Shown here: in pieces, positions 12,476 through 30,326 of the stretch
Numbering within the stretch: the stretch's first letter is position 1
How the letters are laid out: every line of letters starts with the position of its first letter
Source of the DNA: Candidatus Pacearchaeota archaeon
Lineage (GTDB): Archaea; Nanobdellota; Nanobdellia; Pacearchaeales; UBA284
Assembly (NCBI GenBank): GCA_026016245.1
Contig: CP061211.1
Span: 570,001-602,000 of the forward strand
Direction of reading: 5' to 3'
DNA: 32,000 nt
Notes under the pieces: model-generated
Database searches by the model: none
The model's input: only the letters and a program-made list of their open reading frames with translations
Told to the model about the DNA's origin: nothing
Position numbers and translations under genes: made by a program

Positions 12476-12534
12476 AATTTAGTTTAAGAACATTTTTAAA
12501 TTCCTTATCATTGTCATATCATAGCTAGGGGAAA

Positions 12535-13110: not shown

Positions 13111-13146
13111 AATGAGTGAAAAAATTGAAGACAAATAATAGATATA

Positions 13147-13643: not shown

Positions 13644-13644
13644 G

Positions 13645-14175
13645 ATGGCTATACAAAAGAAAAAATATTTTGATGTTAAGCTTAATATTTTCAACACAAC
13701 AATCCAGCTTCTGGCATTTAAGCCAGAGGATCTTGAAGGGAGAAACGTCAAGTTTGATTTAACAAAAATTCTGAAAGGAAAACATTGTGAGGCTAATTAT
13801 ATAATAAAGAACAGAGATGGGAATCTTGTTGGTGAGATATATCAATTTAAGATTCAGCCCTCTTTTATCAGGAGATTGATTGGCCGAAATGTAAGCATTA
13901 TTGAGGATTCTTTTTTATGCAAAGTGAAGGATGCTAATTTGAGAATAAAGCCTTTTCTTATTACAAGAAAAAAAGTGCATAGATCTGTAAGAAAAGCGTT
14001 AAGGGATGAGGCAAAGAGATTTATAAAAAAGTTGGTGGAGAACAAGGACAAGGATAGTGTTTTCCAAGAAACAATTTTAGCTTCTATACAAAAACAGTTA
14101 AGCAAGAAATTGAAAAAAACATATCCCTTGGCAGTATGTGAGTTAAGAATTGTGAAAGTTGAAAAGGCCAAATAA
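13645..14175 (+). CDS. rps3ae: 30S ribosomal protein S3Ae (eS1)
   Basis: This is the same frame as ORF-track 13558-14175. The internal ATG at 13645 lies 2 nt after the L44e stop. MAIQKKKYFDVKLNIF...LEGRNVKFDL...IRRLIGRNVSIIED...LRIKPFLITRKKVHRSVRKALR...KKTYPLAVCELRIVKV follows the S3Ae pattern. Confidence 0.85.
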   Translation: MAIQKKKYFDVKLNIFNTTIQLLAFKPEDLEGRNVKFDLTKILKGKHCEANYIIKNRDGNLVGEIYQFKIQPSFIRRLIGRNVSIIEDSFLCKVKDANLRIKPFLITRKKVHRSVRKALRDEAKRFIKKLVENKDKDSVFQETILASIQKQLSKKLKKTYPLAVCELRIVKVEKAK

Positions 14176-14192
14176 TTTTCTCATTTAAAAAA

Positions 14193-15401
14193 ATGGTTGA
14201 CTGGGCACAAATTTATAATCCTTTATTCTTTATTTTAGTTATTATCTTTCTTTATTGCTGTTATATTCTTTATTTTGCTCTTACTGTCAGGAGAAAAAGA
14301 ATAAAACACGAATATTTTCCTTATGTCTCTGTACTTGTTTATGCCAAGGATGCTGGAAATGTCATAAGAAGAAGAATTGAAAATCTCATCAAACAGAATT
14401 ATCCGAAGAATAAATATGAGATAATTATTTATGATAACGCCTCAAAAGATGAAACTCAAGAAATCTGTATGAAATACAAAAAAAAGAAGCTAATTAAATA
14501 TCTAAGAAAAAAATTTGATAGAAAGGGCCCTCTTCTTGATCTAGCTATCAAAAAACTTGCTAAAGGAGAAATTTTGTTAATGACTGATCCTGATGTTCTT
14601 GCTGAAAAAAATTGGATTCTAAACATAGTTCAACCTTTTAAGGATAAGAGTGTAGGAGCTGTTGCAGGAACTGTTCATTGCGGAAACTATTACAAAGGTA
14701 TTATTCCATTAATGAGAGCAGTAGAAGATGAGTGGAGATTTGTTGCTCCAGTATTAAGAGATTCTGACACTGTTTTTAGTATAGGAGCAAATCAGGCTTT
14801 GAGAAGAGAGACATGGGAACAAACAAAATATGGGGGAAGCTTGCTTGATGATCTTGATATTATCTCGAGAATTATTGATAAGGGATGGAAGGCTGTTGGA
14901 TCTAGTGCAACAGGAACAGAAGAAGAAGTTGAAACCCCAGGACAGTATTGGAGGCAGAGGACAAGGTGGTACAAGGTTAATACTGCAGATTATTTTGGTG
15001 TAAGCAAGAAATGGAAAAAATTTCTTGAAAGTTTTCCTCATGTAATCCAGTTTTTTGCTCTTGTTTTATTAATAGTTTTTATCATCTCTTTATCTATAAC
15101 CTTCAATTATCTTATATGGTTCAGCATAATCAATTTTGTTTTAATGAATCTTGCCATGATTATCGCTTTTATAAAAATAAAGACAGGAAAAGCATTTATT
15201 CCAGCAATACCTTTATTTCTTACTCTGGATACTATACTTTTTGGGACAACTTTATTTTGGGTGCACATACCAGGAAGATTTTTTCATTTAACAAAAGAAG
15301 TATGGCCATCTCTACAAGGAAGGTATTATCATGTTGGCTCAGAATTAAAGAAATGGTTTTTTGAATTTGAGGAGAAAGTCAAGGATTACACAAAGATTTA
15401 A
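14193..15401 (+). CDS. Membrane-embedded family 2 glycosyltransferase (processive, cellulose/chitin-synthase-like)
   Basis: ORF track, 402 aa. It has an N-terminal TM helix and VSVLVYAKDAG...YEIIIYDNASKDET. Motifs: DxD-like MTDPDV, an acidic LLDDLD motif, and QRTRW (QxxRW). It ends in 3-4 C-terminal TM helices. Confidence 0.85.
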   Translation: MVDWAQIYNPLFFILVIIFLYCCYILYFALTVRRKRIKHEYFPYVSVLVYAKDAGNVIRRRIENLIKQNYPKNKYEIIIYDNASKDETQEICMKYKKKKLIKYLRKKFDRKGPLLDLAIKKLAKGEILLMTDPDVLAEKNWILNIVQPFKDKSVGAVAGTVHCGNYYKGIIPLMRAVEDEWRFVAPVLRDSDTVFSIGANQALRRETWEQTKYGGSLLDDLDIISRIIDKGWKAVGSSATGTEEEVETPGQYWRQRTRWYKVNTADYFGVSKKWKKFLESFPHVIQFFALVLLIVFIISLSITFNYLIWFSIINFVLMNLAMIIAFIKIKTGKAFIPAIPLFLTLDTILFGTTLFWVHIPGRFFHLTKEVWPSLQGRYYHVGSELKKWFFEFEEKVKDYTKI

Positions 15402-15432
15402 TAAATTATTGAAGAATTTTTTTATAGAAGGT

Positions 15433-15450
15433 AAAGTTTAAAAGTTTTCT
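15433..15450 (+). repeat. 18-bp sequence AAAGTTTAAAAGTTTTCT, copy 1 (BRE/TATA-like)
   Basis: It is identical to 18197-18214. Both copies have a similar 5' flank (GG[TC]) and 3' flank ([GA]AC). Confidence 0.7.
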
Positions 15451-15518
15451 GACCATCAACCACCCCCCTTAAATATTTCTTGCTGAAATCAAAAGATTTA
15501 AATAGTATAATACATAAA

Positions 15519-15543
15519 TAAGTATATTAAGTATCATAAGTAT
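15519..15543 (+). promoter_or_regulatory. Three direct TAAGTAT repeats at 9-bp spacing upstream of vapB (candidate operator/promoter)
   Basis: TAAGTAT occurs at 15519-15525, 15528-15534 and 15537-15543, with a degenerate ATAGTAT at 15502-15508. The last copy merges into TATAATAAAA about 28 nt upstream of the vapB ATG. Confidence 0.4.
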
Positions 15544-15570
15544 AATAAAAAATATTTGGAGAAAGAAAAA

Positions 15571-15786
15571 ATGACAAACATGACTTTGGCAATTCCAGAA
15601 GAGTTGCACCGCAGGATGAAGCAGTTCTCTGAAATAAGATGGGCAGAAATAGCTAGAAGGGCTATGGAAGAAAGGGCAAAAGATCTTGAAGAAATGGAAA
15701 AAATTGCCTCTAAGAGCAAACTAACTAAAAAAGATGCCGCAATTCTGGCGAAAAAGATAAAAAGAGCTGCTGCCAAGAGATTTTAA
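15571..15786 (+). CDS. vapB: VapB-type antitoxin (putative)
   Basis: ORF track 15556-15786. I prefer the ATG at 15571 (MTNMTLAIPEELHRRMKQFSEIRWAEIARRAMEE...), which has an RHH/AbrB-like N-terminus. Its stop overlaps the PIN gene start (TAATG). Confidence 0.6.
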   Translation: MTNMTLAIPEELHRRMKQFSEIRWAEIARRAMEERAKDLEEMEKIASKSKLTKKDAAILAKKIKRAAAKRF

Positions 15787-16205
15787 TGTTTATTGTTATA
15801 GATACGAATGTCTTTATTGCAGCTTTAATAAAAAATAGTTTGACTAGAGAGCTAATTTTAAATACAAAAGCCAGAATTCTATTCCCAGAATTAATTTTAG
15901 ATGAGTTAAGAAATCATGAGCAGGAAATAATCAAAAAATCAGGCATTTCAAGACAGGAATATCTCTTTATTTTATCAAAGCTTTTAAAATATGTCATGGT
16001 TGTGCCTTCAGAACTATGTCTGCCCTTTAAGGAAAAAGCTAAAGAGATAATGGATAAAATAGACCCTGATGATAGTGTTTTTATCGCAACTTCTTTAGCA
16101 TTTGGCAAGTGCGTTATTTGGAGCGATGACAAACATTTTAAGAAACAAAAATTTGTAAAAATAATAACCACAAAAGACATGAGTAAGAATTATAAAAAGA
16201 GATAG
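15786..16205 (+). CDS. vapC: PIN-domain ribonuclease toxin VapC
   Basis: ORF track, 139 aa. MFIVIDTNVFIAALIKNS carries the first acidic PIN residue. Later acidic residues are in ...PDDSVFIATSLA...IWSDDKHF. The start is coupled to the upstream small ORF. Confidence 0.8.
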   Translation: MFIVIDTNVFIAALIKNSLTRELILNTKARILFPELILDELRNHEQEIIKKSGISRQEYLFILSKLLKYVMVVPSELCLPFKEKAKEIMDKIDPDDSVFIATSLAFGKCVIWSDDKHFKKQKFVKIITTKDMSKNYKKR

Positions 16206-16241
16206 AAACTCTTAAATAATTTCTTGTTGTTATGGATATTA

Positions 16242-18098
16242 CTATGAAAATCTATTTAATATACGTTTGAATAAACCATCTCTTTTCCTTGTTTCCTTTG
16301 AAATATCTTCTTTAGGGATTCTACCAGATAGTTCTAATGTTTTAATATCTTTTAATTTGCTATTTAATTCATCTCCGAATTTAATATCCTTTAGATTTAA
16401 TCTTACTGTTTTATTACCTTTCCATTCATTCAATTCCAGTAGGTAAGCTATATGAATTTGTTTAGTGTTTTTGGAAATTTTGTCTAAAAAATGAGCCATC
16501 CGAAAACCTATGGCTTCTATTATGTTATTATAATTATCATAAAATTTAATTTTAAGATGTTTTTCTTTTAAGAGGTTGGGATAGTCGGTAAGGCTAAGAT
16601 TTGTAGAATAGAAAATTGGTTTTGGATTGCCTATTCCAAAAGGAGGTAATTGATTTATTTCTTTAATTAAAGTAGGATTAATATCAGCTAAATCTAACTT
16701 AGCATCAAGTTTTAGAATGGGCATAAACTGTTTGGAAGAAATTTTATTTTTTGCATATTTGCAAATCTGCTTTCTAAATTTTTTGATGTTTCTCTTATTA
16801 ATTTTAATACCAATTGCCTGTTCATGTCCTCCATAATTTATTAATAGGTTCTTACATGAATCTACTGCTTTAAGAAGATGAAAATTAGGAATACTTCGTC
16901 CAGATCCATATGCTCTGTCTTTTTCTATAGAGATTAGAATTGTTGGTTTATTATATATCTCAACAATACGAGAAGCTACAATTCCGATTATTCCTCTATG
17001 CCATCTTTCTTCTGCTAAAATAATACAATTTTCCTTATCAAGATTTATTTCTTTTTTTATCTTTAACAATGCTTTTTCTAATATCTTTTCTTGAATAACT
17101 TGTCTACGTATATTTTGTTCATCAAGAATATAAGCTATTTCTTGGGCCTTATTTTCAGAATTTGTTTGAAGTAGTTCCATAGATTTATCTGCTGTAGTTA
17201 AACGTCCTGCAGCATTTATTCTTGGCGCTAATCTAAAAGATATGTGTCCTGAATTGATTTCTTTCCCTCTAAGGCCTGAAACTTTGATTAAGGCTTTTAA
17301 ACCAATATTTTCAGTTCTCATTAACTGCTTTAAACCATATTTAACAATTATTCTATTTTCTCCATCTAAAGGCACGATATCAGCTATTGTTCCAAGACAA
17401 ACAAGATCTAAAAGAGAAATAATATTTAAACTGAGATTATATTTTTTTATTAAAACTTGTGCTACTTTAAATGCTATTCCTACCCCACTTAATTTTTTAT
17501 ATGGATAGTTGCATTTTTTTTGTTTGGGATTAATGATGGCTACTGCCTTAGGAAGTAATCCTATTTGTTCATGATGATCTGTAACTATTACATCAATAGA
17601 TTTCCTTTTAGCATACTTTATTTCTTTATTGGCGCTAATCCCACAGTCTACTGTAATAATTAAACCTACACCTTGTCTCCTTGCATAATCTATACTTTTT
17701 TTATTTAGTCCATAACCTTCAATTAATCTATTTGGAAAATAATATATGATTTTTCCTCCAATTAATTTAATAATTTTTACTAGAATAGCTGAAGCAGTTA
17801 TTCCGTCAACATCATAATCACCAAACAACATTATTCTCTCTTTATTAGTTATTGCTTTCTCAATACGATTAATAGCTTTATTCATATCTTTAAGTAAAAG
17901 AGGATTATGCATATCTTCAAAACGGCATCTAAGAAACTTTTCTGCTTCTTTAGAATCTATTATTCCCCTATTAGTAAGTAAAGTAGCAATTAATGGTGAA
18001 ATACCTAATTTTTGAATAAGAATCTGGCTATGTTTTTCTCTAGATTGTCTAATATTCCATTCCTTTTGTATATATGGCATAAATAAAATAGAACTCAA
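16242..18098 (-). CDS. recJ: Single-stranded-DNA-specific exonuclease RecJ with a bacterial-type motif layout
   Basis: ORF track, 618 aa. LLTNRGI...MHNPLLLKDMNKAINRIEKAI...IMLFGDYDVDGITASAIL...YFPNRLIEGYGL...IITVDCGI...VIVTDHH...GVGIAFKV...GGHEQAIG carries DHH motifs I-IV and the DHHA1 GGH motif, arranged as in bacterial RecJ. Confidence 0.9.
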   Translation of the reverse strand: MSSILFMPYIQKEWNIRQSREKHSQILIQKLGISPLIATLLTNRGIIDSKEAEKFLRCRFEDMHNPLLLKDMNKAINRIEKAITNKERIMLFGDYDVDGITASAILVKIIKLIGGKIIYYFPNRLIEGYGLNKKSIDYARRQGVGLIITVDCGISANKEIKYAKRKSIDVIVTDHHEQIGLLPKAVAIINPKQKKCNYPYKKLSGVGIAFKVAQVLIKKYNLSLNIISLLDLVCLGTIADIVPLDGENRIIVKYGLKQLMRTENIGLKALIKVSGLRGKEINSGHISFRLAPRINAAGRLTTADKSMELLQTNSENKAQEIAYILDEQNIRRQVIQEKILEKALLKIKKEINLDKENCIILAEERWHRGIIGIVASRIVEIYNKPTILISIEKDRAYGSGRSIPNFHLLKAVDSCKNLLINYGGHEQAIGIKINKRNIKKFRKQICKYAKNKISSKQFMPILKLDAKLDLADINPTLIKEINQLPPFGIGNPKPIFYSTNLSLTDYPNLLKEKHLKIKFYDNYNNIIEAIGFRMAHFLDKISKNTKQIHIAYLLELNEWKGNKTVRLNLKDIKFGDELNSKLKDIKTLELSGRIPKEDISKETRKRDGLFKRILNRFS

Positions 18099-19545: not shown

Positions 19546-19618
19546 GGGCCCGTGGTCTAGTGGTTACGACGTTGCTTTGACGTGGCAAAGATCCCAGGTT
19601 CGATCCCTGGCGGGCCCA
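19546..19618 (+). tRNA. tRNA-Val (anticodon GAC)
   Basis: Hand fold, 73 nt: acceptor GGGCCCG/CGGGCCC, D arm GTCT-AGTGGTTA-CGAC, anticodon stem TTGCT/GGCAA, loop TT-GAC-GT, variable loop AGATC, T arm CCAGG-TTCGATC-CCTGG, discriminator A. No CCA is encoded. Confidence 0.85.
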
Positions 19619-19659
19619 CTCATCATAGGATTTAAAAAAGGTAAGAGTTTTGTTAGAGA

Positions 19660-19995
19660 ATGGCAAAAAAAGGTGGTGACGAAGAAAAAATTTTTGCATT
19701 TCTTTGTTATTTGATTTCAATAATTGGTGTAGTGATTGTATTGGTTACAAAAAAAGACAGAAGCGACTTTAGTATCTATCATGCTAGACAGGGACTTGTT
19801 CTTTTTATAACTTGGATAATTGTTGCTATCCTATGGTCTATTTTAGGGTTAATACCTATTATTGGGTGGATTATAGGGTGGATACTATGGATACTAGTGC
19901 TAGTATTATGGATAATTGGAATGGTTAATTCTTTGACAGGAAAGAAAGTTCCATTGCCAGTGATTGGTGGATTTGCAAAATCTTTCAAGTTTTAG
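19660..19995 (+). CDS. Small membrane protein, DUF4870-like
   Basis: ORF track, 111 aa, with three TM helices. IFAFLCYLISIIGVVIVLV...DFSIYHARQGLVLF resembles the conserved HA.Q motif of that family. Confidence 0.5.
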   Translation: MAKKGGDEEKIFAFLCYLISIIGVVIVLVTKKDRSDFSIYHARQGLVLFITWIIVAILWSILGLIPIIGWIIGWILWILVLVLWIIGMVNSLTGKKVPLPVIGGFAKSFKF

Positions 19996-20098
19996 TGTCA
20001 TAAAGAGAAAAAAAGAAAACACAAAGTAAGATTTATATAGAGTTTTTTCCTCTCATCAAAAGAGAAGAGAGCTAAAAAAGAGGAGGGGCGCGCCTCAA

Positions 20099-21967
20099 AT
20101 GCAGCACAAGAAAGCACAAGTTACTATTTTTATAATAATTGCTGTACTTATTGTAGCTGTGGCTCTCTTCTCCTATTTTTTCATCTTCAGACCGCCAGCA
20201 ATTGTAATTCCTTCTGAAATTCAGCCTGTTGAAGCTTATCTTGTTGAGTGTGTTAGCGAGCAAGTTAAAGATGCTACAAGGATTGCTGGATTACAAGGAG
20301 GATATTTGGAAATGCCAGAGTTTGAACCTGGTTCTGAACAGCTTCCTTTTTCATCCCAGTTTGATTTTTTAGGAATACAAGTTCCTTATTGGTTTTATGT
20401 TTCTGGAAATAATCTAGCTAGGGAAAGAAAGCCTAGTTTGAAGGATATAGAAAAAGAGTTTGCTGATTATCTTAAAGAAAGAGTTGAGGAATGTAAGTTT
20501 GAGAGTTTTATTTTGCAAGGTTATGATATTGAAGTAGAAGGAAAGCCAGATATTGAAGTTAATATTAGAGCAAATTCAATTGAAACATTAGTAAACTGGC
20601 CTATTGATATTAATTATAGAGATATTAATGTTCGAATTGTAGAACATAGGGTTAGTACTAAAACCAGTTTTGGCCAACTTTATGATACTGCAAATAGAAT
20701 TTTTGATAGTGAGCAGGAGAAGTTGTTTTTAGAGAATTATGCTCTTGATGTCTTAAGACTTTATGCTCCTACTACTGATATTGAATTAAGTTGTGCTCCT
20801 AAAACCTGGTTTGTTAGTTCTGTTAGGGATGAGGTAAATAGTGCTCTTGAAGTTAATATCGCTGCTGTCAAGGTTTCTGGAACTTATTATGAATTAGACA
20901 GGAAAGAGGATGAGTATTTTGAGGTTGATGTTGGTGAGAGTATTGATGAGCAAGTGTATTTTCTTTATTTTAGGAATATGCCTCATGTCTTTGAAGTTTG
21001 GCCTTCTGAAGATAATTTAATGGAAGCAGAACCTATTGGAACACAGCCTGGTCTTGGTATCTTAGGAACTTTAGGTTTGTGTTATGTTCCTTATCATTTT
21101 GTCTATGATTTGAAATTCCCTGTTTTAGTTCAAGTGCTTAGGAATGGTGAGCTATTCCAGTTTCCTGTTGTGGTTGTAATTGATAAAAATAGTATAAGAA
21201 ATATGACTGCTGCTGAAACTCAGGAAATTGTGTTTGATTTATGTCAGCATAAAACACAGGAAGTTACAATATTCACTTATGATGAAAATACTCAGCCAAT
21301 TGAGGCTAAGCTTGGATTTAAATGCTTTAATCAAATATGTGATTTAGGTAGGACAAGAATAGAGGGCAGTAAGGCTGTTCTTGAAACTAGAATACCCCAA
21401 TGTTATAATGGATTTGTAGTAGCTAAGGCTGATGGTTATGTTACTAAAAAAGCTCCATCTCCAGGAATACAGACTTTTGTCATGAATGTATTCATGAGTC
21501 CTGAGCATGTTCTTGATTTAGAGGTTGGGGGATTGGGAAGCGGAGAGCATGCTACTGTAACTTTCACATCAGAAGATTATAGTGCTAGTGTTTATTATCC
21601 TGATCAAAAACAAATAATCTTGGCTGAAGGAATCTATAATGTATCAGTTTATTTGTTTAAAGAATCCTCAATTACTTTGGAATCTCAGAGAGTTGAAAAA
21701 TGCATAGATGTTCCTGTTGGTGGTATTGGCGCTATATTTGGAATTATGCAAGAGCAATGTTTTGAGCTTGATGTGCCTCAAGAAACTTATACTGATGTAA
21801 TATTTGGAGGAGGTTTTGTTGAATTTTCTATAACTGAATCTGAATTAAGAGGAGCATCTAAAGTCAGCATTATAGCTCCTTCATATGATGTTCCAAAAAA
21901 TCTGTTTGATTTAGGAGATGTTTATGGATTAATAGATGTCGGTGAAGTTCGAGTTTCAATAAAATGA
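20099..21967 (+). CDS. Large extracellular protein with a prepilin-like (class III-type) N-terminus; function unknown
   Basis: ORF track, 622 aa. The N-terminus is MQHKKA|QVTIFIIIAVLIVAVALFSYFF, with the same KKA motif as the pilin-like ORFs at 126-685. AGGAGG lies 13 nt upstream. The stop overlaps the start of the giant gene (ATGA at 21964-21967). Confidence 0.7.
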   Translation: MQHKKAQVTIFIIIAVLIVAVALFSYFFIFRPPAIVIPSEIQPVEAYLVECVSEQVKDATRIAGLQGGYLEMPEFEPGSEQLPFSSQFDFLGIQVPYWFYVSGNNLARERKPSLKDIEKEFADYLKERVEECKFESFILQGYDIEVEGKPDIEVNIRANSIETLVNWPIDINYRDINVRIVEHRVSTKTSFGQLYDTANRIFDSEQEKLFLENYALDVLRLYAPTTDIELSCAPKTWFVSSVRDEVNSALEVNIAAVKVSGTYYELDRKEDEYFEVDVGESIDEQVYFLYFRNMPHVFEVWPSEDNLMEAEPIGTQPGLGILGTLGLCYVPYHFVYDLKFPVLVQVLRNGELFQFPVVVVIDKNSIRNMTAAETQEIVFDLCQHKTQEVTIFTYDENTQPIEAKLGFKCFNQICDLGRTRIEGSKAVLETRIPQCYNGFVVAKADGYVTKKAPSPGIQTFVMNVFMSPEHVLDLEVGGLGSGEHATVTFTSEDYSASVYYPDQKQIILAEGIYNVSVYLFKESSITLESQRVEKCIDVPVGGIGAIFGIMQEQCFELDVPQETYTDVIFGGGFVEFSITESELRGASKVSIIAPSYDVPKNLFDLGDVYGLIDVGEVRVSIK

Positions 21968-24900
21968 GAAAAATGAAAAAAATAAATTTGGTTTTGGCAG
22001 TTTTGTTACTTGCAGTTTTATTTTCTGTTTTAATGGTTAGTGTTATGGCTCAACAACCTCCAATTGTCCCACCAGCTCCTGAATTGCCTCTTGAGCAGAT
22101 TCAAACACCCCCTGAATTTTACATGCAAGAGCCTCCAACACCTTATTTGTATCCTAATGCTGGTGTAACTCCTTGGTCTCATGTAGAATGGAGAGAGGGG
22201 TATTGCAATAAAACAGGGATGGATTTTCTTATTGAGATAGCTCCAGATGCATGCCAGCCTGCTATTGTTACTAGTGATCTTTTGGAAGAGCAAGATGTTC
22301 CTGTTTTATGTAGAATGACTGGGATAAAGATTAATCCAATAATACAAGTTCCATATATTAAGAGAATTATTCCTGCTGTTGAGAATCGTTCTGATGGAAT
22401 TAGTTATGTTAATTTCTTGCCTGCCCGTTATGCCCTAAGTTATTATGGTGATAGTGGACAGAAGAAGCCAGGTTTTGAGGGTGTCCCTACTATGAGTAAT
22501 CTAGGATATTTATTAATAGTTTTGAAAAGACAGCCCTCTGAAAAGAAAATGCCTGAGAGTGTCAAGGCTGATATTTCTGTAAGAATAATTTATGATATAG
22601 CCAGAACTTATGGGATTAATGAGAATCAGTTTGTATTGCCTTTATTAAGCCAGGAAGAATGGATCACTAACTACAAGAATTATGGTTTCTGGAGGGGCAA
22701 GGGTTATTTAAGGTTGCAGGAAATAGAGGGCAATAATAGAGCTAAAGTTGCTTTGTATACTATTCCAAGTGCAGCTCCTTTTGCTACTAGGGATCTTAGA
22801 GTGGGTATTGATCCTACAAAGAAAGATGAAGTTATGTTACCAGGATTTTATTGTGGTGCTGGTGTTAGTTTAAGATTAGATGAAATTTCTATTCCAAAGA
22901 ATAGAATTAGATTATTAGTTAATGGAAATGAACTTTTATTAGGAGAGGGAGAGCGTATTCAGGATTCAGGTTGTGTTGTTTTTAAAATTGAGCCTTCACC
23001 TTACACTTATGGAGGCAGTGCAGTAATAAGATGTGCTGCCACAGACAGAAAAGTTTTGACACTAAGTGATATTGAGGCAGATATTAAAGTGGATGAAAGA
23101 GAAGAGAGAGTGAGTGTTGGTTCTAGAATTGTTGCTGAAAAAGATAACAAGAAGAATTATTTTTATGTTGGCTATCTTGGCAAGGAGTATTTGAAAGAAG
23201 GTATGGATAATTTTATGATTTTATTTTCTGGAAAAAATGCAGAAAGTCCTTTGAGTGAGGGGGCTGTTAAAAAAACAACTGAAACAATACACTCTTATAT
23301 TAAATCACTAAGAGGAGAGGCATTAGAGGCTTTGCCTTCAACAACATGGAATTTACAATTAAGGGAAGCTCTTCAGAAAATATATCCAGATACTGCTAGG
23401 CAAGTCACTAACTTTTATGTTTCTAAGAAAGGTGTCTCAAATGGAATAGGCAGTCTAGGCACAAAGATAAATATTATTGATATGAGGGGGCCTAAGCAAG
23501 TTCTTTATTCAAGTGATGTTGAGGCTGTTTATAAGGACGCTATACAGCACTATCGTGATATTGCTCATGCTTACTCTGTTGAGCAGCATCCTGAGGGAAT
23601 GTATTATGGTGTAATGGCTCTAAGTTCTGCAGCAGACTTGGCTTCTGAATTGCATAAGGAAATTGATGAAGTTGATTTGTTGAGAGAGCTTATTGATAAA
23701 TATTCAGATTCTAGTGAGCTTGAAATTATTGCAGAGGTTGAGGAGGCAAGAGAGAGATTGAGGAGAGTTGTTTCCTTGAGTGGAGATAATTCTGCTATGT
23801 TCTCCAGACCAAGTGGAAATTATTTTATGCAGATGGTGTCAGTTGAAAAACCCTCTCTTGCAGTGCAGTCAGCTGAGATGGAGATTAATGATGTGAGAGG
23901 AACTTATGGTATTGATGATATTATTGATGGCTGGCAGATTGAAGATATAACTGATATTGGCGTTGTTTTCAAGAATCTGACCAAAACTTCTGAGAGAGAG
24001 ACTGTTTCAATAGGCAAAGTTGTTTATTTTGGACAGACAAGAGTTAAGGTTTTGGATATTACAATAAAAAGGGAGGCAAAAGTAACTATATTGCCTTTTG
24101 AACGTGAGCGAGAGACTGAGACTAATTTCAGTATTCAGATAGGTATTGAGAAAAGAGCAATACAATTGAGTCCTGAAAAAACAAGAGAGATGATTGCAGG
24201 TCTTGATAAAACTATTAGTAAGTTTGAGAGTGTAAGAGATAAGTTAGGGGATGTTGTTAGTGTGTGGAAGAAAGCATGTTATGTTGGCGCTAGTGCTTTA
24301 TGGGTAAAGAATTTTGTTACTGGCCTTAGTGGAGAAGCTCTTGCAAGAAAAAAAGTTATGCAAAGATGGACAATCATATGTTCAGATGAAGGTTATAGAA
24401 AAAGTATAGGAGCTGTCAGTATTTCAGATTGTTATAGAATAAAAGAAGATGCAATTAATAAAGATATAAATTTGATGAAAAATTCTCTCAGTAAAGCGAA
24501 TTCATTTGTAAAGGATGTTAAAGAGAGTGAGGGAGTTACAAAGACTGGTGGGTTATTTGGATTATCTAAGACAGTTGATGAAAATGAGTTCATGAAAGTT
24601 GCTAACAAAACTTTCTCTTCTGAACTTAAAGGAATAGGAGATATTCATCAACAAAAACAACTTAGAAAGATAGCAGTTTCAGATGGCCCTATTATTTATC
24701 AGGGAAAGAGATATGAGAGCATTAACAAATTAATAGAAGATATTGGAATTCAGACATTTGAAGAAAGGAAAAATGAGTATGCTGAAATTGAGAATAGGTT
24801 TGTGAATACTGCGAAGATTACCGAGAATATAAGTTATTTGCATCAGAAAAGCCAGTTGTTTAAGAATGATATTAAGGAACTTCATTTGACTCTTGAAATT

Positions 24901-27900
24901 TATAATGAATGCAAAAAGAAAACTCAAAGTGATATTGAAGATTCAGCCTTGTGTAAAGAAGCTTTGACAGGAACTTATGGAAAACTTAGTGGTTATGCTA
25001 ATGTTCTTGAAGAGGGAACTGCGCAAGAGGCTTTGAAAGATGTTTTAGGGTTAGATGCAGTGGTTGTTGTTCCAGAAAAACGTAATATTATCAAATCTCC
25101 AATCTATACATTAAAGAATTTTCCTAAATTGCAACCAAAGCTAGAAGAAAGTGGTGATACTAGATTTACTTATTTCTATCACACTGCAAATTATTATATT
25201 GCTGTTGTTGAATCAACTGGAGATGGAAAATTTGCAATCAAAACCCTTTATAATATTGAAAAATTAGGAACAGAAGATATTAAAGTTGTTGAGAAGTTCA
25301 CAAGTCCTGAATTATCTGGAAAACTTGGGGATTTGGGTATTTCTCATGTTGAAGAAATTGATATAACTTTATGTAATAATAATGAGATTAAAAACCCTTA
25401 CAGGAATGAAATTAAATTCTGGGAAACAGGGCCTTACAAAGATTTTGTTGCTTTAATGCCAATAGATAGAAGAACAGGATGGTATCTGGCAACTACTTAT
25501 ACAGGTTTAGAAGGTGCTTTGGTTGCATGGAAAGAATCTGGTGATATAAATGTGTTCTGGATTTGTAATGTTGGTCAGGATGGAATTCCTAATTTTGATT
25601 TCAGCCAGGGAGCTAGTGGTGATGATTGTTGTACTCAGGTTGCATTGATTACAGGAGCAGAGCCAGAGATTCCACCTTTAACTGCATCTGGCTCTAGAGA
25701 AATTGTTAAGAGGGCCAAAGATTGTGCTAAGCAAGCCATAACAGATTACTCCCAAGGCAAGAGGAGGATAGAGACTAAGTGTGGGGACTTTGTCTTGGCA
25801 AAGCCACCTTCTGCCAGGCCTGCTATGCAGTGCGAAGATTTCATGAGTCCTAGTGATTGCAGAATCATGTTTAATCTATGCGATCCTGTTATGTGTCCTT
25901 CATCTAGATGTGATCTTGGTGGAAGAATGCCTGTTGATGATGTGGTTGCTTCTGGTGTAATAGGAAGCTTGATGTTGTGCTTGCCTAATTGGGAAGATGG
26001 TCGGGGAGTATTAGTTCCTATATGTTTGACTGGGGTTCATGCTGGTTTAGATAATTTCATAACAATACTAAAATCAGGGAGAGATTGTTTGCAAGAACAG
26101 TTAGAGACTGGGAAAACAATAGGGATATGTGATGAGATAATGTCAATATATAAGTGTGAGTTTTTTTGGAGACAGCTTGATCCTTTTATCAGGGCAGGAA
26201 TTCCGGCATTAACTGAGAGTTTCACAGGAAGAGGAGGAGGGGAGTATGCTTTATTTAGTGAATCCTGGAAACAAGGCACTAATGCTTTGAGATATTGGAG
26301 TGATTATTATGAACAAACATCAAATCAAGCATTTAAGGCAAGAAGCACTGCCCAAATTGGAACTGAGATATGTAAGAGGTTTATTTCTGGGACATATCCA
26401 ACTCAAGCACAGTTCTGGGAGCAAGTGAGTAAGCCTGAATCCCCAACGCAAGCAATGGCATGGTTTGATGAAACTCAAATGGGTGGACCAAGTCCTGAAA
26501 GCCATTATAAAGTATTTTTCCATATATTTGCTGGACGCGATCAGGGAGTTTATTATAGTGTTTATCTAAGAAGCCCTTCTGCTCCTGGCTATTATCAGCC
26601 GCCTCCTCAGTACATGATTCCAAATGGATTTGGTTATCTTCCAGCAGGTGAGTATATTAGCATGACACCTGACTTTACTGCCCCTAGTGGTTATAAGGAG
26701 GTTTGTATCAGGTTGAATGAGAAAGAGATTTGTGGTTTTGGCCAGGCAACAACAAATTTTGCAATAGAGGAGCTTCAGAATTATTATCTTAAAAAACAGG
26801 CTGCAGAAGATGTAAGCACAGCTCAAGAATGTGTGAGTGGAAAGCCAACAATAATTCCTACTGCTACACTGAACATACAATCAGCTGTTGAGCATGCTTT
26901 AGAGCCAGCCATTTATAGAAGAGGGATTATCAGAAGATGTTCTACTTTAAATCCAGGATTAAATACAGAGCCAGATAGATGGAAGAGGATTGGTTATTGT
27001 GATAGTGAAAGTGTTGGCTGCTGGCTTGATACTAAAAGTGTTGAAGGAGCAGTAAGTGATTTAGGAATAAGGGAAGATATTATGGAAGAGGCTGAGCAAA
27101 AAAACATTGCTCATGCTATTGAAAAATATGGCTATGATAAACTTGAAGACAGCCAGAGCAATCTTATAAAAAATGAACCAAAAATTCTGGATATTGAAAA
27201 AACAGTTACTGAATTTATCAACAAAGTGAATTTAATGATAGAAGATGAGTTTAAGGCAGAGAAAAAAGATCTTGAAAAAGAGATTGAGAATATAGACAAG
27301 ATAGAGATTCAACCTCTTATAATAACATTCAGAGAAATAAGCAAAAAATGTGCAAGAAGTGAGGAGAAAGCAAGAGCAGATTGGGCAATTGCAAAAATAC
27401 TTGGATTAAGAGCTAGGTTATATGCACTACCAGGAATTTATGAAGTTGAAAAAAAATTAAAAGAGGAAGAAATTCCTGTGGAGATTAGAGATACTCTTGG
27501 CTTGCTGGACTGGCCTGTTCCTTTAGGTTATGATATTATAAGTTATTATGGTGAACCTCGCTTTGGTTATGAGCATACTGGTATTGATATCGGGGGAGCA
27601 GGAACTGAAGGATATGATATTGTAGCAGCTGCAAGCGGAAAAATTGTTAAAACAATTGATGGGTGTAAGGTTAGTGACTGTGAAAACTGTGTAACTGAAA
27701 TTTGTGATACTGAAGGTTGCAGGAGAAGTAAGGTTGGTAAATCAGGTAACATGATTGTGATTGAGCATGAGTATAGTGGTAGAAAAATATACTCTCTTTA
27801 TATGCATCTAAAAGAAAATAGTGTTGTTGTTAAAGTAGGAGATAATGTTAAGAGGGGTGAAAAAATAGCTGAAGTCGGCAAGACTGGGAATGCTTGTGGT

Positions 27901-29652
27901 ACTCCTCCTCATTTACATTTTGAAGTTAGGTTAAAAAGATATTCTGATGACAAGAATCCTTTATGTTTCTTTTCTGCTGCAACACTTTCAAAAGTGGATT
28001 TACCTCTCGGAAAATATGATGCTGAGGAATGCAAGAAAATCCAGAATGAATTCAAATTTGGAGTTGAAATAAAAGAAATAAGAGAATGCAAAAATATTCC
28101 TCTTAGAGACCAATGTTTATTACGAATAGATATATGTTATTGGGATTCTGCTGATTTAAAATGTAGGGGCTGTCCAGATAAATGTGAAGGTTCTAGAGAA
28201 AGTTTTTGGGATCCTTTTTGGAATGATCCTAATCTCATGTTCAAAACAAAAAATGATTGTGAGGATAATAATTGTGCTTTAGATTGTTTATGGTCAGATA
28301 AAGATAATAAATGTAAAAGTATAAGTGATGAATATGTTAGGGATAAAGTAAATAAAATAGATTTAATGACAGCTGATGAGATAAAAAAGCTAAAGGAAAT
28401 AGTTGAGAGAAATAAAAACAAGTTAAGTCAAGCAGATACATGGCTTAGTATTATAAATAGAAAACTTGCTGAGATTGAGCCGCAAATAACTGAAATTATT
28501 TTATATTCCTCTGTAAATAATGGAGATTTTGACAGAAGTAATAAATTGGTTGATTATGATGATAGAGTTGAGATTTGCGCTGTTCTGGAAATTGGAGGAA
28601 AGCTTTACTCTGGCAGGAGTTTAAGCACATCTATAAAGGGATATGAAGGTCCAAAACCTATATTCAGATGGTATAATATTATTCCTTATTATCAACCAGA
28701 GTATGGTGATTCAGGAGAGACTTATGAGTTGTATCTTTATGAAGGAGGAAGAAAAGATCTCTTGCAATATAGTCAACAACAAATTAGTGGTAATGATTGG
28801 TGTGTTTATGCTAATGGAAATGTAGGAACTTATCAGTATAGGGTTGAGACTGATGATTCTTCATCTTTAGGAAGAGCAGCTACATTAGCAGATAAGATTG
28901 AGTATGAGAGAAAATACATGAATTGGGGAATAAATTTTAACAAGTATGATGGTTACTGGCACACACTTTTACAACCAGCTGCTGTTAAGACTGCTGGCAT
29001 TAGTACAGATGTGCACAGAATAAGTAGAAAGTCAGATGCTAGGACTTGCATAGAAAAAGATTATAGCTATTATGATAAAAGATGTAGGTTTATTGCAACA
29101 CTAGAATCTTTTAAAAATGTTCCTTTTGCTTATGGATGTGCTTATTATGAAGATGAACAGAATAAGGTTGAACATCTGGCAAAGAATTTTGTTGCTATTG
29201 ATTGTATTAATTTAATGATTGGAGCTTTAGATTCTATGTATCCAGATACTTATGAGTTTTCACCAAAAATATATTTTGATGATTTTATAAGAGATTATAC
29301 AACAATTAAGTATGGAATAGAAAAATGGCCTCTAGAATCTGTTCTTGGAATTAATATGTTTTTTGATAAAGATGAAGAGCTTAATGTTGAACCAGGAGAT
29401 ATCTTGTTTGTGTGGAGAGAAGGTAAGGGTTATACACATACTTTTGTAATTTATGAAGATAAAGGAGAAAAAGGAATTTTTGATGAAGATGATATTATGG
29501 TTTATGCTAGTAGAAATTGTCCTGGAAGTGAGCCTAAGAATAAAGAAAGCAAGATACTATACAATGGCCAGCTATGTTATGCACCAATAGGAAGATACAA
29601 AGATGACCCTAACTTTAAATTTACTTTAGTAAAAATAAAAAATTTAGAATAA
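21964..29652 (+). CDS. Giant secreted multidomain protein (2,562 aa) with an M23 metallopeptidase domain and a C-terminal NlpC/P60-like domain
   Basis: The ORF is uninterrupted for 7,689 nt. The signal peptide is MRKMKKINLVLAVLLLAVLFSVLMVSVMA|QQPP, followed by a Pro-rich linker. M23 motifs: H1871-TGID, SLYMHL and H1983-LHFE. NlpC/P60-like motifs: VPFAYG...AIDC(2414)INLMIG...PGDILFVW...YTH(2492)TFVIYED. Residue numbers are derived from in-frame nucleotide positions. Confidence 0.9.
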   Translation: MRKMKKINLVLAVLLLAVLFSVLMVSVMAQQPPIVPPAPELPLEQIQTPPEFYMQEPPTPYLYPNAGVTPWSHVEWREGYCNKTGMDFLIEIAPDACQPAIVTSDLLEEQDVPVLCRMTGIKINPIIQVPYIKRIIPAVENRSDGISYVNFLPARYALSYYGDSGQKKPGFEGVPTMSNLGYLLIVLKRQPSEKKMPESVKADISVRIIYDIARTYGINENQFVLPLLSQEEWITNYKNYGFWRGKGYLRLQEIEGNNRAKVALYTIPSAAPFATRDLRVGIDPTKKDEVMLPGFYCGAGVSLRLDEISIPKNRIRLLVNGNELLLGEGERIQDSGCVVFKIEPSPYTYGGSAVIRCAATDRKVLTLSDIEADIKVDEREERVSVGSRIVAEKDNKKNYFYVGYLGKEYLKEGMDNFMILFSGKNAESPLSEGAVKKTTETIHSYIKSLRGEALEALPSTTWNLQLREALQKIYPDTARQVTNFYVSKKGVSNGIGSLGTKINIIDMRGPKQVLYSSDVEAVYKDAIQHYRDIAHAYSVEQHPEGMYYGVMALSSAADLASELHKEIDEVDLLRELIDKYSDSSELEIIAEVEEARERLRRVVSLSGDNSAMFSRPSGNYFMQMVSVEKPSLAVQSAEMEINDVRGTYGIDDIIDGWQIEDITDIGVVFKNLTKTSERETVSIGKVVYFGQTRVKVLDITIKREAKVTILPFERERETETNFSIQIGIEKRAIQLSPEKTREMIAGLDKTISKFESVRDKLGDVVSVWKKACYVGASALWVKNFVTGLSGEALARKKVMQRWTIICSDEGYRKSIGAVSISDCYRIKEDAINKDINLMKNSLSKANSFVKDVKESEGVTKTGGLFGLSKTVDENEFMKVANKTFSSELKGIGDIHQQKQLRKIAVSDGPIIYQGKRYESINKLIEDIGIQTFEERKNEYAEIENRFVNTAKITENISYLHQKSQLFKNDIKELHLTLEIYNECKKKTQSDIEDSALCKEALTGTYGKLSGYANVLEEGTAQEALKDVLGLDAVVVVPEKRNIIKSPIYTLKNFPKLQPKLEESGDTRFTYFYHTANYYIAVVESTGDGKFAIKTLYNIEKLGTEDIKVVEKFTSPELSGKLGDLGISHVEEIDITLCNNNEIKNPYRNEIKFWETGPYKDFVALMPIDRRTGWYLATTYTGLEGALVAWKESGDINVFWICNVGQDGIPNFDFSQGASGDDCCTQVALITGAEPEIPPLTASGSREIVKRAKDCAKQAITDYSQGKRRIETKCGDFVLAKPPSARPAMQCEDFMSPSDCRIMFNLCDPVMCPSSRCDLGGRMPVDDVVASGVIGSLMLCLPNWEDGRGVLVPICLTGVHAGLDNFITILKSGRDCLQEQLETGKTIGICDEIMSIYKCEFFWRQLDPFIRAGIPALTESFTGRGGGEYALFSESWKQGTNALRYWSDYYEQTSNQAFKARSTAQIGTEICKRFISGTYPTQAQFWEQVSKPESPTQAMAWFDETQMGGPSPESHYKVFFHIFAGRDQGVYYSVYLRSPSAPGYYQPPPQYMIPNGFGYLPAGEYISMTPDFTAPSGYKEVCIRLNEKEICGFGQATTNFAIEELQNYYLKKQAAEDVSTAQECVSGKPTIIPTATLNIQSAVEHALEPAIYRRGIIRRCSTLNPGLNTEPDRWKRIGYCDSESVGCWLDTKSVEGAVSDLGIREDIMEEAEQKNIAHAIEKYGYDKLEDSQSNLIKNEPKILDIEKTVTEFINKVNLMIEDEFKAEKKDLEKEIENIDKIEIQPLIITFREISKKCARSEEKARADWAIAKILGLRARLYALPGIYEVEKKLKEEEIPVEIRDTLGLLDWPVPLGYDIISYYGEPRFGYEHTGIDIGGAGTEGYDIVAAASGKIVKTIDGCKVSDCENCVTEICDTEGCRRSKVGKSGNMIVIEHEYSGRKIYSLYMHLKENSVVVKVGDNVKRGEKIAEVGKTGNACGTPPHLHFEVRLKRYSDDKNPLCFFSAATLSKVDLPLGKYDAEECKKIQNEFKFGVEIKEIRECKNIPLRDQCLLRIDICYWDSADLKCRGCPDKCEGSRESFWDPFWNDPNLMFKTKNDCEDNNCALDCLWSDKDNKCKSISDEYVRDKVNKIDLMTADEIKKLKEIVERNKNKLSQADTWLSIINRKLAEIEPQITEIILYSSVNNGDFDRSNKLVDYDDRVEICAVLEIGGKLYSGRSLSTSIKGYEGPKPIFRWYNIIPYYQPEYGDSGETYELYLYEGGRKDLLQYSQQQISGNDWCVYANGNVGTYQYRVETDDSSSLGRAATLADKIEYERKYMNWGINFNKYDGYWHTLLQPAAVKTAGISTDVHRISRKSDARTCIEKDYSYYDKRCRFIATLESFKNVPFAYGCAYYEDEQNKVEHLAKNFVAIDCINLMIGALDSMYPDTYEFSPKIYFDDFIRDYTTIKYGIEKWPLESVLGINMFFDKDEELNVEPGDILFVWREGKGYTHTFVIYEDKGEKGIFDEDDIMVYASRNCPGSEPKNKESKILYNGQLCYAPIGRYKDDPNFKFTLVKIKNLE
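27500..27935 (+). other. Peptidase M23 (LytM/lysostaphin-type) domain within the giant ORF
   Basis: The segment reads LLDWPVPLGYDIISYYGEPRFGYEHTGIDIGGAGTEGYDIVAAASGKIVKTIDG[CKVSDCENCVTEICDTEGCRRSKVGKS]GNMIVIEHEYSGRKIYSLYMHLKENSVVVKVGDNVKRGEKIAEVGKTGNACGTPPHLHFEVRL. The HxxxD and HxH zinc ligand motifs are both present. Confidence 0.8.
29110..29520 (+). other. NlpC/P60-like (papain-fold) cysteine peptidase domain at the C-terminus of the giant ORF
   Basis: The segment reads FKNVPFAYGCAYY...NFVAIDCINLMIGALD...VEPGDILFVWREGKGYTHTFVIYEDKG...DDIMVYASRN. It parallels the NlpC/P60 pattern PY.wGG...DCSGLv...pGDLvFf...HVgIY.g...iiHAs. Confidence 0.55.
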
Positions 29653-30072: not shown

Positions 30073-30168
30073 TTTGTTTCAACACCTCATGATTATATTT
30101 TTTATAAGAATAAGACCTTTTTAAATCTTTCGTTTGTAGTCACTAAGCAATGAAGACAAAATATAATA

Positions 30169-30252
30169 TGCGGGAGACAGGATTCGAACCTGCGTAGGGA
30201 CTAACCCACCAGGTCCTAAGCCTGGCCCGTTTGACCACTCCGGCACTCCCGC
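30169..30252 (-). tRNA. tRNA-Leu (anticodon UAG), class II with a long variable arm
   Basis: Hand fold of the minus strand, 84 nt: acceptor GCGGGAG/CTCCCGC, D stem CCG/CGG with an 11-nt loop, anticodon stem CCAGG/CCTGG, loop CT-TAG-GA, 15-nt variable arm TGGGTTAGTCCCTAC, T arm GCAGG-TTCGAAT-CCTGT, discriminator A. A TATA-like TTTTAAAAAT lies about 25-30 nt upstream. Confidence 0.85.
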
Positions 30253-30326
30253 ATACTTTTTTAATGTATTAAGGATTTTTAAAATTATCGAGAATAAACA
30301 AGCTAAAATTTAGAAAATATTTGGAT

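Follow-up and report, generated by a model that had tools for sequence, protein, structure and literature searches.

An overlapping gene pair in a Pacearchaeota genome

The window under consideration, i.e., a stretch of 32,000 nucleotides (nt) of contig CP061211.1 from a Candidatus Pacearchaeota archaeon (positions 570,001 to 602,000; GC content ~33%), carries on its forward strand two genes in tandem, which code for a protein of 622 amino acids (aa), hereinafter the partner (20099..21967), and for a protein of 2,562 aa, hereinafter the giant (21964..29652). The stop codon of the former and the start codon of the latter overlap as ATGA at 21964..21967, which can be read directly in the sequence, and both open reading frames (ORFs) and their overlap lie where the initial annotation of this DNA had placed them. 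At the GC content of the window, stops are expected to constitute ~7.5% of random codons, and by our own calculation the chance of an open frame of 2,562 codons is ~e^-198; thus, the frame of the giant is not a product of chance. Both proteins have identical counterparts in the databases: the giant is 100% identical to a protein (P0001) annotated as 'MAG: M23 family metallopeptidase' from a Candidatus Pacearchaeota archaeon, and the partner is 100% identical to 'hypothetical protein IB618_03610' (P0251) from a Candidatus Pacearchaeota metagenome-assembled genome (MAG), the two being annotated genes on a contig of 710,724 bp. Inspection by eye further reveals a TATA-box-like element, TTTATATA, at 20032-20039, ~60 nt 5' of the partner ATG (20099), and a Shine-Dalgarno-like GAGGAGG at 20080-20086, 12 nt 5' of the same ATG. 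No comparable TATA-box-like or Shine-Dalgarno-like signal is discernible by eye before the start of the giant, which is consistent with a single transcript and coupled translation of the two genes.

Distribution and genomic setting of the pair

The association of the two genes extends far beyond the window. In each of four distant contigs (4/4), the giant is immediately preceded by an ORF of 612–637 aa with 35–55% identity to the window partner, and a relative of the partner was recovered at 439 loci when a single genome from every GTDB species was scanned. All 80 of the partner loci that were inspected belong to MAGs of Pacearchaeota, Woesearchaeota, Nanoarchaeota or an unclassified 'archaeon', and, likewise, the named matches of both the giant and the partner are limited to Pacearchaeota, Woesearchaeota, Nanoarchaeota or 'archaeon'. 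The N-terminal block of the giant follows the partner in each of the 81 loci with enough downstream DNA, immediately so in 79 of them. Among 82 loci, 25 have a 4-nt overlap at the junction between the two, and in the others the gap mostly amounts to 20 nt or less. Thus, the co-occurrence survey proposed with the initial annotation proved strongly positive (81/81 loci), and the tight coupling of the two genes that it had read in a single sequence is a property kept across the family.

The pair is embedded among housekeeping genes. In the window it is flanked by genes for GINS51, S3Ae, L44e, S8e, LSM, SRP54, FtsY and a RecJ-like DHH protein, of which GINS51, S3Ae, L44e, S8e, LSM and SRP54 also confirm the archaeal nature of the contig, as had been supposed at the outset. 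Several of these recur next to the pair across 84 loci (S3Ae in 64, L44e in 56, GINS51 in 47, FtsY in 36, S8e in 36 and LSM in 32), and TFIIB is also found among the conserved neighbors. Neither integrase nor capsid genes were found near the pair at the loci examined, and no viral contig of IMG/VR encodes the partner. This combination of housekeeping synteny and absence of the partner from IMG/VR points to a vertically inherited two-gene core unit rather than to an island or a provirus. Judged by gene context, the pair is a core, vertically inherited unit of Pacearchaeota/Woesearchaeota.

Candidates for further conserved components of the system were considered and rejected, as only housekeeping genes recur beside the pair in the 84 loci: DUF4870 and orf130 are near it in 11 of these, and orf132, orf67, PIN, RecJ-like and LMWPc in none. 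A conserved downstream gene of the immunity type was not found either, with orf132 absent from all 84 loci and the same-strand downstream ORFs being heterogeneous. In the window, the gene directly upstream of the partner (19660-19995, +) codes for a DUF4870/MamF-MmsF-like membrane protein of 111 aa, which is near the pair only in close relatives, i.e., in the 11 loci mentioned above. A tRNA-Val(GAC) gene at 19546-19619 (+) and a tRNA-Leu(TAG) gene at 30168-30253 (-) bracket this neighborhood.

The partner and its prepilin-like signal

The N-terminus of the partner reads MQHKKA followed by QVTIFIIIAVLIVAV, and its first 90 nt (20099..20188, +) code for a class III (prepilin-like) signal, MQHKKA then QVTIFIIIAVLIVAVALFSYFF, with a putative cleavage site after Ala6. 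In an alignment of partners, K5, Q7, T9 and F11 are invariant. A sequence pattern check, by which the class III signal was judged, finds the motif [KR][GAS]-Q-x-[TSA]-x-F with ~20 hydrophobic residues in its strict form in 62 of 82 partners and, once close variants are allowed, in all 82. Thus, as far as such a pattern can tell, the N-terminus of the partner matches the archaeal class III (prepilin-type) signal. The initial annotation had pointed to a KKA plus hydrophobic helix in the partner and to the same feature in two small minus-strand ORFs of the window (126-305 and 311-685); both observations hold, in that the motif is kept in essentially all 82 partners and the small pilin-like ORFs, including a further one at 1340-1495, display the same type of N-terminus. 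No gene for a prepilin peptidase of the Peptidase_A24 type was found among the window ORFs scanned.

The signal is succeeded by a conserved, Cys-containing ectodomain of ~590 aa with no known domain. The orthologs lying directly upstream of giants measure 605–667 aa, and the partner family as a whole comprises at least 1,234 members of ~605–640 aa, all annotated as 'hypothetical' and none with a Pfam domain. A search of all PDB sequences, by phmmer with the single sequence and by hmmsearch with a profile, yielded no relative. The arrangement of [KR]-[GAS] followed by Q and ~20 hydrophobic residues is shared with type IV pilins and with the sugar-binding proteins of the Sulfolobus bindosome, from which the partner differs in its ectodomain of ~590 aa, in the lack of a pilin domain of the DUF361 type and in a window that is devoid of a prepilin peptidase gene.

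The giant: a secreted, Cys-rich scaffold

The giant begins with MRKMKKINLVLAVLLLAVLFSVLMVSVMA followed by QQ, and aa 1-29 (21964..22050, ending in VMA before the QQ) are predicted from hydropathy and the pattern in homologs to be a Sec-type signal peptide, after which comes a Pro-rich variable spacer. The segment aa 9-27 is the sole strongly hydrophobic one in the entire protein (Kyte-Doolittle 3.08). The giants of all 82 extracted orthologs open with an n-region rich in K, which leads into a hydrophobic core and then into a cleavage site with small residues; hence, by these sequence hallmarks, giants carry Sec-type signal peptides, and what had looked cleavable in the window protein holds across its homologs. 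Of the 61 Cys in the giant, 34 lie in aa 1-1750, and 26 of the latter are conserved at 90% or more in 149 giants, which fits a disulfide-bonded extracellular protein.

The conservation profile of these 149 giants delineates three blocks within this long N-terminal region, the scaffold: block A (aa 61-400; 22144..23163), without a Pfam match; block B (aa 691-870; 24034..24573), for which long helices are predicted; and block C (aa 1141-1710; 25384..27093), which combines α/β parts with many invariant Cys and holds one immunoglobulin (Ig)-like β-sandwich at ~aa 1495-1596. Nested inside block C is a hyper-conserved Cys-rich core (aa 1290-1410; 25831..26193), wherein identity to the query ranges from 56 to 76% per 30-residue bin (mean ~64%; 149 sequences) and nine Cys are conserved at 90% or more. 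The core also contains a hydrophobic Gly/Ser-rich stretch, reading VVASGVIGSLMLCLP and, further on, GVLVPICLTGVHAG, which is the sole secondary hydropathy peak of the giant. Residues ~60-1700 align in 106 of 106 homologs, and the region after ~1750 in only ~23.

The scaffold resists assignment to any described domain. Pfam and NCBIfam searches with the whole giant and with ten overlapping segments at E≤10 recovered Peptidase_M23 only, the rest being noise. A whole-scaffold profile run against all PDB sequences found no relative of the scaffold, and across these PDB searches only M23 structures were matched. Foldseek searches of PDB and BFVD with an AF2 model of the scaffold matched only a generic Ig-like sandwich of ~110 residues, the matches being to ApaG, the Ig domains of GH2/GH3, C3 MG, a domain of Fsx1 and DUF4352; no viral fold relative emerged from BFVD. 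A functional reading of the Fsx1 match was considered and rejected, the match being to this generic sandwich. The description of the first ~1,850 residues as lacking a recognizable domain is thus borne out by Pfam/NCBIfam, PDB sequence and fold searches alike.

The M23 peptidase and the C-terminal module

C-terminal to the scaffold lies a peptidase domain of the M23 (LytM/lysostaphin) type (aa 1870-1991; 27571..27936), interrupted by a Cys-rich insertion of ~30 aa. It matches Pfam PF01551 with 63.5 bits and E 2e-17 in the whole giant (gathering score 28.7) and with 65.2 bits in the isolated tail. The motifs HTGID (aa 1871-1875), YMHL (1946-1949) and PHLHFE (1982-1987) supply all of the zinc-binding and catalytic residues, namely H1871, D1875, H1948, H1983 and H1985; hence, the domain looks like an active enzyme. 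By the same token it looks catalytically intact on its residues, unlike the degenerate LytM factors EnvC and NlpD. NCBIfam matches of the domain are MepM, ShyA and Pgp3, and it aligns with the structures of PDB 2gu1, TagE, LytM, lysostaphin and ShyA, the PHLHFEV of the giant corresponding to the same residues in 2gu1 and TagE. Its nearest named relatives are short DD-metalloendopeptidases of bacteria (Firmicutes), with 32–41% identity. Thus, the domain shares with the bacterial LytM/lysostaphin/MepM/ShyA enzymes the type of catalytic domain, the HxxxD motif, the catalytic His and the HxH, and it differs from them in its placement near the C-terminus of an archaeal protein of 2,562 aa, in the Cys-rich insertion, in that modest level of identity and in having none of their LysM, SH3b or coiled-coil regulator architecture.

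Between this domain and the C-terminal module is a Cys-rich region without a Pfam match (aa 2000-2130; 27961..28353), which could be a binding or spacer domain. Twelve Cys are found in aa 2001-2200, e.g., in CRGCPDKCEGS and CEDNNCALDCLWSDKDNKCKS.

The C-terminal module proper comprises an Ig/Fn3-like β-sandwich (aa 2190-2300; 28531..28863), which is evident in an AF2 model and has Foldseek matches of the Fn3 and CBM types, and a divergent papain-like domain of the NlpC/P60 superfamily (aa ~2301-2562; 28864..29649), recognized by profile-profile comparison and fold. For aa 2190-2562, the model, which draws on 19 homologs, reaches a pLDDT of 90.6 and a pTM of 0.90 and displays the sandwich followed by the α/β domain. 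Direct searches are negative: there is no Pfam match to NLPC_P60 or its clan with the whole giant, with segments of 233–251 aa (E≤10) or with the 373-aa module, and no match in a sequence/profile search of all PDB sequences. Amidase_6 is matched in one of the 19 homologous modules (E 0.022) and in one of 45 species tails discussed below (E 6e-4). Foldseek against PDB places first the N-acetylmuramoyl-L-alanine amidase 4q5k (probability 0.99, E 4e-3) and 2p1g, both reportedly DUF1460 NlpC/P60 amidases (Xu et al. 2014, Structure). Further matches are to the NlpC/P60 endopeptidase 6sqx (P. damselae) and, at lower rank, to the type VI secretion system amidase Tse1 (4fgi); all of the fold matches are papain-like cell-wall hydrolases, yet their TM-scores are ≤0.44 and none has E≤1e-3.

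Stronger support comes from sequence comparison. Searched exhaustively with HMMER, the profile of the module gathered 151 cluster representatives, many of which are stand-alone proteins of 300–460 aa; among 97 such stand-alone relatives, 20 match NLPC_P60 (best E 1.4e-6), four match CHAP and two Amidase_6. An hhalign comparison of the module alignment with these relatives gives a probability of 100% and E 1.9e-47 and brings the Cys and His columns into register: Cys2414 (AIDC), invariant in 19 of 19 modules, corresponds to the Cys of 'G-DCADL' in the relatives, and His2492 (YTHTF) to their conserved His. Asp2510 is nearly invariant among the module homologs and, to go by that conservation, could substitute for the third catalytic residue. 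Thus, by profile-profile and fold evidence, the C-terminal module is a divergent member of the NlpC/P60 superfamily, and it may be a cysteine amidase/peptidase or serve binding only. It resembles the known NlpC/P60 amidases and peptidases (4q5k/2p1g, 6sqx and Tse1 4fgi) in its predicted papain-like α/β fold, in a 'DC' motif whose Cys lies at the N-terminus of a helix and in the His after a 'GD...' strand, and departs from them in the missing direct Pfam match, a Tyr in place of the third His, the N-terminal fusion to an Ig-like domain and the low TM-scores. The initial annotation had predicted both an M23 domain with HTGID and HLH and an NlpC/P60-like Cys/His domain at the C-terminus. The former scores above the Pfam threshold with all of its catalytic motifs kept, and the latter stands as a superfamily assignment made through profile-profile and fold comparison, the HMM match to NLPC_P60 that it implied being absent.

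In 23 homologs the module forms the very C-terminal end of the protein, irrespective of the enzyme in front of it. Stand-alone relatives of 447 and 450 aa are encoded at two loci, L085 (2299-5615) and L086 (4118-7353), with bacterial-looking surroundings, including RhaA, an FGGY kinase, Maf and Ysc84. In both, the relative of the module overlaps by 4 nt with an upstream gene for a TPR protein of ~630–660 aa, constituting a recurrent pair of TPR and NlpC/P60-like proteins. The gene context of these two loci suggests a bacterial origin for the module.

Exchange of tails on a constant scaffold

A protein search over 5.8 billion sequences retrieved 107 giants of 1,528–3,621 aa, all from MAGs of Pacearchaeota, Nanoarchaeota or an unclassified 'archaeon'. 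The precomputed Pfam domains in their tails include M23, Amidase_3, SLT, glucosaminidase, NLPC_P60, M10, DUF1615, ankyrin and TPR. For a count by species, the tail was defined as the sequence after the conserved 'GYC...CWLD' end of the scaffold in 45 complete giants from different GTDB species. Peptidase_M23 and SLT were each found by Pfam in five of the 45 tails, Amidase_3 in three and Peptidase_M15_4 in two, with Amidase_2, Glucosaminidase, Amidase_6, DUF1615 and LRR in one each. The remaining tails, over half of the 45, are short (167–430 aa) and without a Pfam match. Taken together, at least nine hydrolase families are represented among the tails, i.e., M23, SLT, Amidase_3, Amidase_2, M15_4, glucosaminidase, NLPC_P60, Amidase_6 and M10. 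SLT, for instance, is absent from the window giant and is found in the homologous giants P0015, P0018, P0020, P0056 and P0073; going by these alignments, the shared feature of the family is the scaffold and not SLT. Tails with DUF1615 (PF07759), ankyrin, TPR or LRR occur instead of or beside the hydrolases in P0066, P0084, P0099 and the giant at L003 8001-15644, indicating that the cargo is not limited to murein enzymes.

The boundary between scaffold and cargo is a natural module boundary, as it coincides with a gene boundary in the complete MAG chromosome CP070794. There, the scaffold ORF (8001-14903; 2,300 aa) is without an enzyme domain, and a second ORF (14905-16836; 643 aa), which starts one base after the scaffold gene, codes for an M23-like domain (26.7 bits) and an Ig/NlpC-P60-like module behind its own Sec signal peptide. 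Splitting of the cargo as a general rule was rejected, CP070794 being the only case among the loci checked.

The range of the tails also bears on the target of these enzymes. By established biochemistry, murein, unlike pseudomurein, possesses β-1,4 bonds between N-acetylmuramic acid (MurNAc) and N-acetylglucosamine (GlcNAc), MurNAc itself, MurNAc-L-Ala amide bonds, D-Ala-D-Ala and D-amino acids; the substrates of SLT, the amidases, M15_4 (a D-Ala-D-Ala carboxypeptidase type) and glucosaminidase are thus features of murein missing from pseudomurein. As the sites addressed by the enzymes of the family are the glycan strand, the MurNAc-L-Ala amide, the stem and cross-link peptides and D-Ala-D-Ala, bacterial walls are the likely target across the family, and pseudomurein and protein envelopes are disfavored. 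Accordingly, from the list of targets in the initial annotation, which had named another cell's wall, be it that of a bacterium or the pseudomurein of a methanogen, and a proteinaceous envelope, the bacterial wall is retained, and the other two recede in view of the SLT, Amidase_2, Amidase_3, M15_4 and glucosaminidase tails.

Relationship to previously noticed proteins and to other systems

SLT-bearing giants that are annotated as such (P0056 and P0073) are homologous to the window giant over the scaffold, with E ~1e-218 to 1e-224; hence, the window giant is a member of an already noticed family, with a different set of enzymes. The AR20 of Castelle in 2015 is said to be an earlier mention of this family. 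Castelle et al. 2021 (PMC8204110) described fam00969, the members of which reach 3,000 aa, as large murein-transglycosylase proteins with an extracellular location and proposed that they attach to or degrade bacterial walls, and the same idea is found in Vigneron et al. 2022 (PMC9723730; 'large lytic murein transglycosylase') and Takamiya et al. 2024 (PMC11537232). The likeness lies in the occurrence in Pacearchaeota/Woesearchaeota, the length of up to ~3,000 aa, the predicted extracellular location and the proposed role; the difference is that the window giant has M23 and an NlpC/P60-like module and no SLT, whereas these papers describe one domain only. Equating the two through the published description of the family, we infer that the window giant belongs to fam00969. 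The novelty assumed in the initial annotation is therefore reduced, both the family and the same functional idea being already present in PMC8204110 and PMC9723730. The papers cited here include neither the invariable partner with its class III signal, the breadth of cargo replacement and the scaffold blocks with their hyper-conserved core, nor the Ig + NlpC/P60-like terminal module and its bacterial stand-alone relatives.

A constant N-terminal carrier with variable C-terminal enzymes is also seen in bacterial polymorphic toxins/effectors and in the wall-punching proteins of phages or conjugative elements (tape-measure proteins with lysin domains, CwlT/PrgK type), which likewise combine endopeptidases with amidases or glycosidases aimed at the murein of another cell. 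In contrast to these, the archaeal pair belongs to the chromosomal core and is not mobile, has no immunity gene, and its scaffold is without sequence or fold similarity to theirs.

Functional interpretation

We consider it probable, though well short of certain, that the pair constitutes an extracellular two-protein surface apparatus by which a tiny and presumably host-dependent archaeon delivers peptidoglycan-cutting enzymes to the bacterial wall. In such a scheme, the two genes, whose arrangement is plain from the sequence, would be co-transcribed and their translation coupled. The partner would be exported by means of its class III signal and undergo pilin-like processing, with the hydrophobic helix retained as a membrane or pilin-like anchor, as the K-[G/A/S]-Q-x-T-x-F pattern suggests. 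The giant would be exported by Sec and fold into a disulfide-rich scaffold of ~1,700 residues made of long helices and β-domains, and the partner would hold it at the surface, for which the strict co-occurrence and parallel divergence of the two speak. The C-terminal end of the scaffold would then bear, projected outward, the interchangeable wall-degrading modules: in the window giant, an M23 zinc endopeptidase that would cut cross-links or stems and the Ig/NlpC/P60-like module, and in related species modules of lytic transglycosylase, amidase, carboxypeptidase or glucosaminidase instead. Opening of the murein of a neighboring bacterium would afford close envelope contact with a host, or else wall and cell contents as nutrients. 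As archaea are without murein, no immunity protein would be needed; in this regard, nothing was found in the literature consulted on a self-made murein wall in these archaea.

Several observations weigh against this interpretation. About half of the giants have tails without a recognizable hydrolase, from which it follows that wall cutting is not the sole, and perhaps not the primary, role of the scaffold. Within the window giant, Pfam and NCBIfam searches, segments included, recognize no peptidoglycan-binding domain (LysM, SH3b, PG_binding), and the AF2 model of the scaffold is of moderate confidence (pLDDT 70.9, pTM 0.52). As to the terminal module, His2492 is replaced by Asn in four and by Phe in one of the 19 homologous modules, and the third catalytic His of the relatives is Tyr2514 in the giant. 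The ectodomain of the partner, at ~600 aa, greatly exceeds a structural pilin in size. In 49 genomes, the identity of the partner and that of the scaffold to their window counterparts go in parallel (Pearson r 0.93, Spearman 0.55); this Pearson correlation is expected from shared vertical descent alone and is thus compatible with physical interaction but no proof of it. Finally, no pace- or woesearchaeote has been cultured with a known bacterial host (PMC9723730, PMC8204110, PMC11537232).

An extension of the above, which we regard as quite doubtful, is that the pair is a hitherto unrecognized kind of machine for cross-domain envelope penetration, with wall cutting only as its first step. Here, the disulfide-locked core (aa 1290-1410), with its hydrophobic segments rich in Gly/Ser (VVASGVIGSLMLCLP and GVLVPICLTGVHAG), may insert into or fuse with the membrane of the host and open a cytoplasmic connection for the feeding of these metabolically minimal archaea. 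A membrane-active core would explain why scaffold and partner are universal even without a recognizable hydrolase and why the core is conserved above any enzyme domain; if true, it would make the pair a complete device for penetrating the bacterial envelope from an archaeon.

The same enzymology would equally serve a free-living cell that deploys the giant as a bacteriolytic or scavenging enzyme, killing competitors or digesting dead walls, with the scaffold as a tether that captures the products and with no stable host. Diverse cargo is typical of weapons, the haloarchaeal peptidoglycan hydrolases studied by Strock et al. 2025 were shown by experiment to kill bacteria, with many such genes occurring in Nanoarchaeota (PMC12352652), and a study of Pacearchaeota proposes the peptidoglycan of dead bacteria as a source of amino acids and a free-living state (PMC11537232). 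However, enzymes for warfare or feeding are usually patchy and mobile, whereas the pair occurs almost universally, in synteny with ribosomal genes, and is passed on vertically; furthermore, scaffold and partner are kept although about half of the giants lack a recognizable hydrolase, and a conserved scaffold of 1,700 residues with an obligate partner seems excessive for a mere tether. On balance we deem this account rather unlikely. That many members are without hydrolase domains would be accommodated if the giant and the partner formed an S-layer or main surface scaffold with the hydrolases as passengers derived from bacteria, and the universality of the pair, its core-genome nature with apparently one locus per genome, the export signals on both proteins and the Cys-rich, extracellular character of the scaffold would agree with this. 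Such a structural role is nevertheless improbable, as S-layer proteins usually evolve fast and the core of 120 residues is ~64% identical on average over 149 sequences, and as nine murein-hydrolase families were repeatedly and independently recruited to one and the same C-terminal position, which argues that access to murein is under selection and not incidental. A metaproteome rich in Pacearchaeota, moreover, reports no dominant giant protein, which is weak evidence in the same direction (PMC11537232).

In terms of the target, DPANN archaea with known hosts do use archaeal ones, and M23 and papain-like peptidases cut peptide bonds, such that other peptides are possible substrates in principle. 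Yet we see very little chance that these enzymes address the pseudomurein of a methanogen that serves as host, or else a proteinaceous envelope of the archaeon itself: sister giants carry SLT, Amidase_2, Amidase_3, M15_4 and glucosaminidase, with their murein-specific substrates, at the same position, no domain of the pseudomurein endoisopeptidase type was found by Pfam on the giant, its segments and the tails, and the nearest M23 relatives are bacterial murein DD-endopeptidases. Slighter still is the likelihood that the giant is a lysin, a tape-measure-like protein or a conjugative wall-punching protein of a provirus or integrative element. Phage tail/tape-measure proteins and the conjugation proteins of Gram-positive bacteria do join long helices with M23, SLT and NlpC/P60, and one homolog (P0083) has a Pfam match to the phage XkdX family (PF09693). 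Nonetheless, a viral or mobile origin was rejected, as in many lineages the conserved neighbors of the locus are ribosomal, GINS, TFIIB and LSM genes and neither an integrase nor a capsid gene is found close by, no IMG/VR contig has the partner and the scaffold is without a fold relative in BFVD.

Few uncultured archaea are as widespread as Pacearchaeota and Woesearchaeota, which have genomes of ~0.6–0.9 Mb and no known hosts. A universal, syntenic surface pair tipped with wall hydrolases constitutes the strongest genomic hint of bacterial partners or prey in these lineages. The specificity of the cargo could predict the wall chemotypes of hosts, comparable to the approach of Strock et al. 2025 (PMC12352652). 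The pair also offers concrete targets for antibodies, labeling in cryo-electron tomography and recombinant assays, and new antibacterial lysins might be obtained from the tail enzymes.

Other features of the window

The small ORFs whose N-termini resemble that of the partner belong to a minus-strand cluster at the beginning of the window (126-305, 311-685, 741-1331, 1340-1495 and 2316-4490). Three of its members are small class III-like ORFs, with the N-termini MRNKKA then VGLSINTIV..., MNKKA then VELNVNTII... and MKNKRG then LVWSEINWWV..., and they adjoin genes for a transmembrane protein of 196 aa and a polytopic membrane protein of 724 aa, the latter with no convincing Pfam match (DUF2207_C at 19 bits). 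The cluster at 126-4490 possibly constitutes a type IV pilus-like locus whose platform protein is an unrecognized one. On the plus strand, 8000-10786 codes for a secreted CARDB-like protein of 289 aa and, after it, for a permease of the MacB type (MacB_PCD + FtsX) and an ABC ATPase. Although the genome is archaeal, this is a MacB/FtsEX-like module of bacterial style for export or mechanotransmission. Among the ribosomal genes, the S3Ae ORF (13558-14175, +), with a TTG start at 13558, overlaps with the end of the L44e gene (13323-13643, +) by 86 nt, and the true start of S3Ae is probably a later codon.

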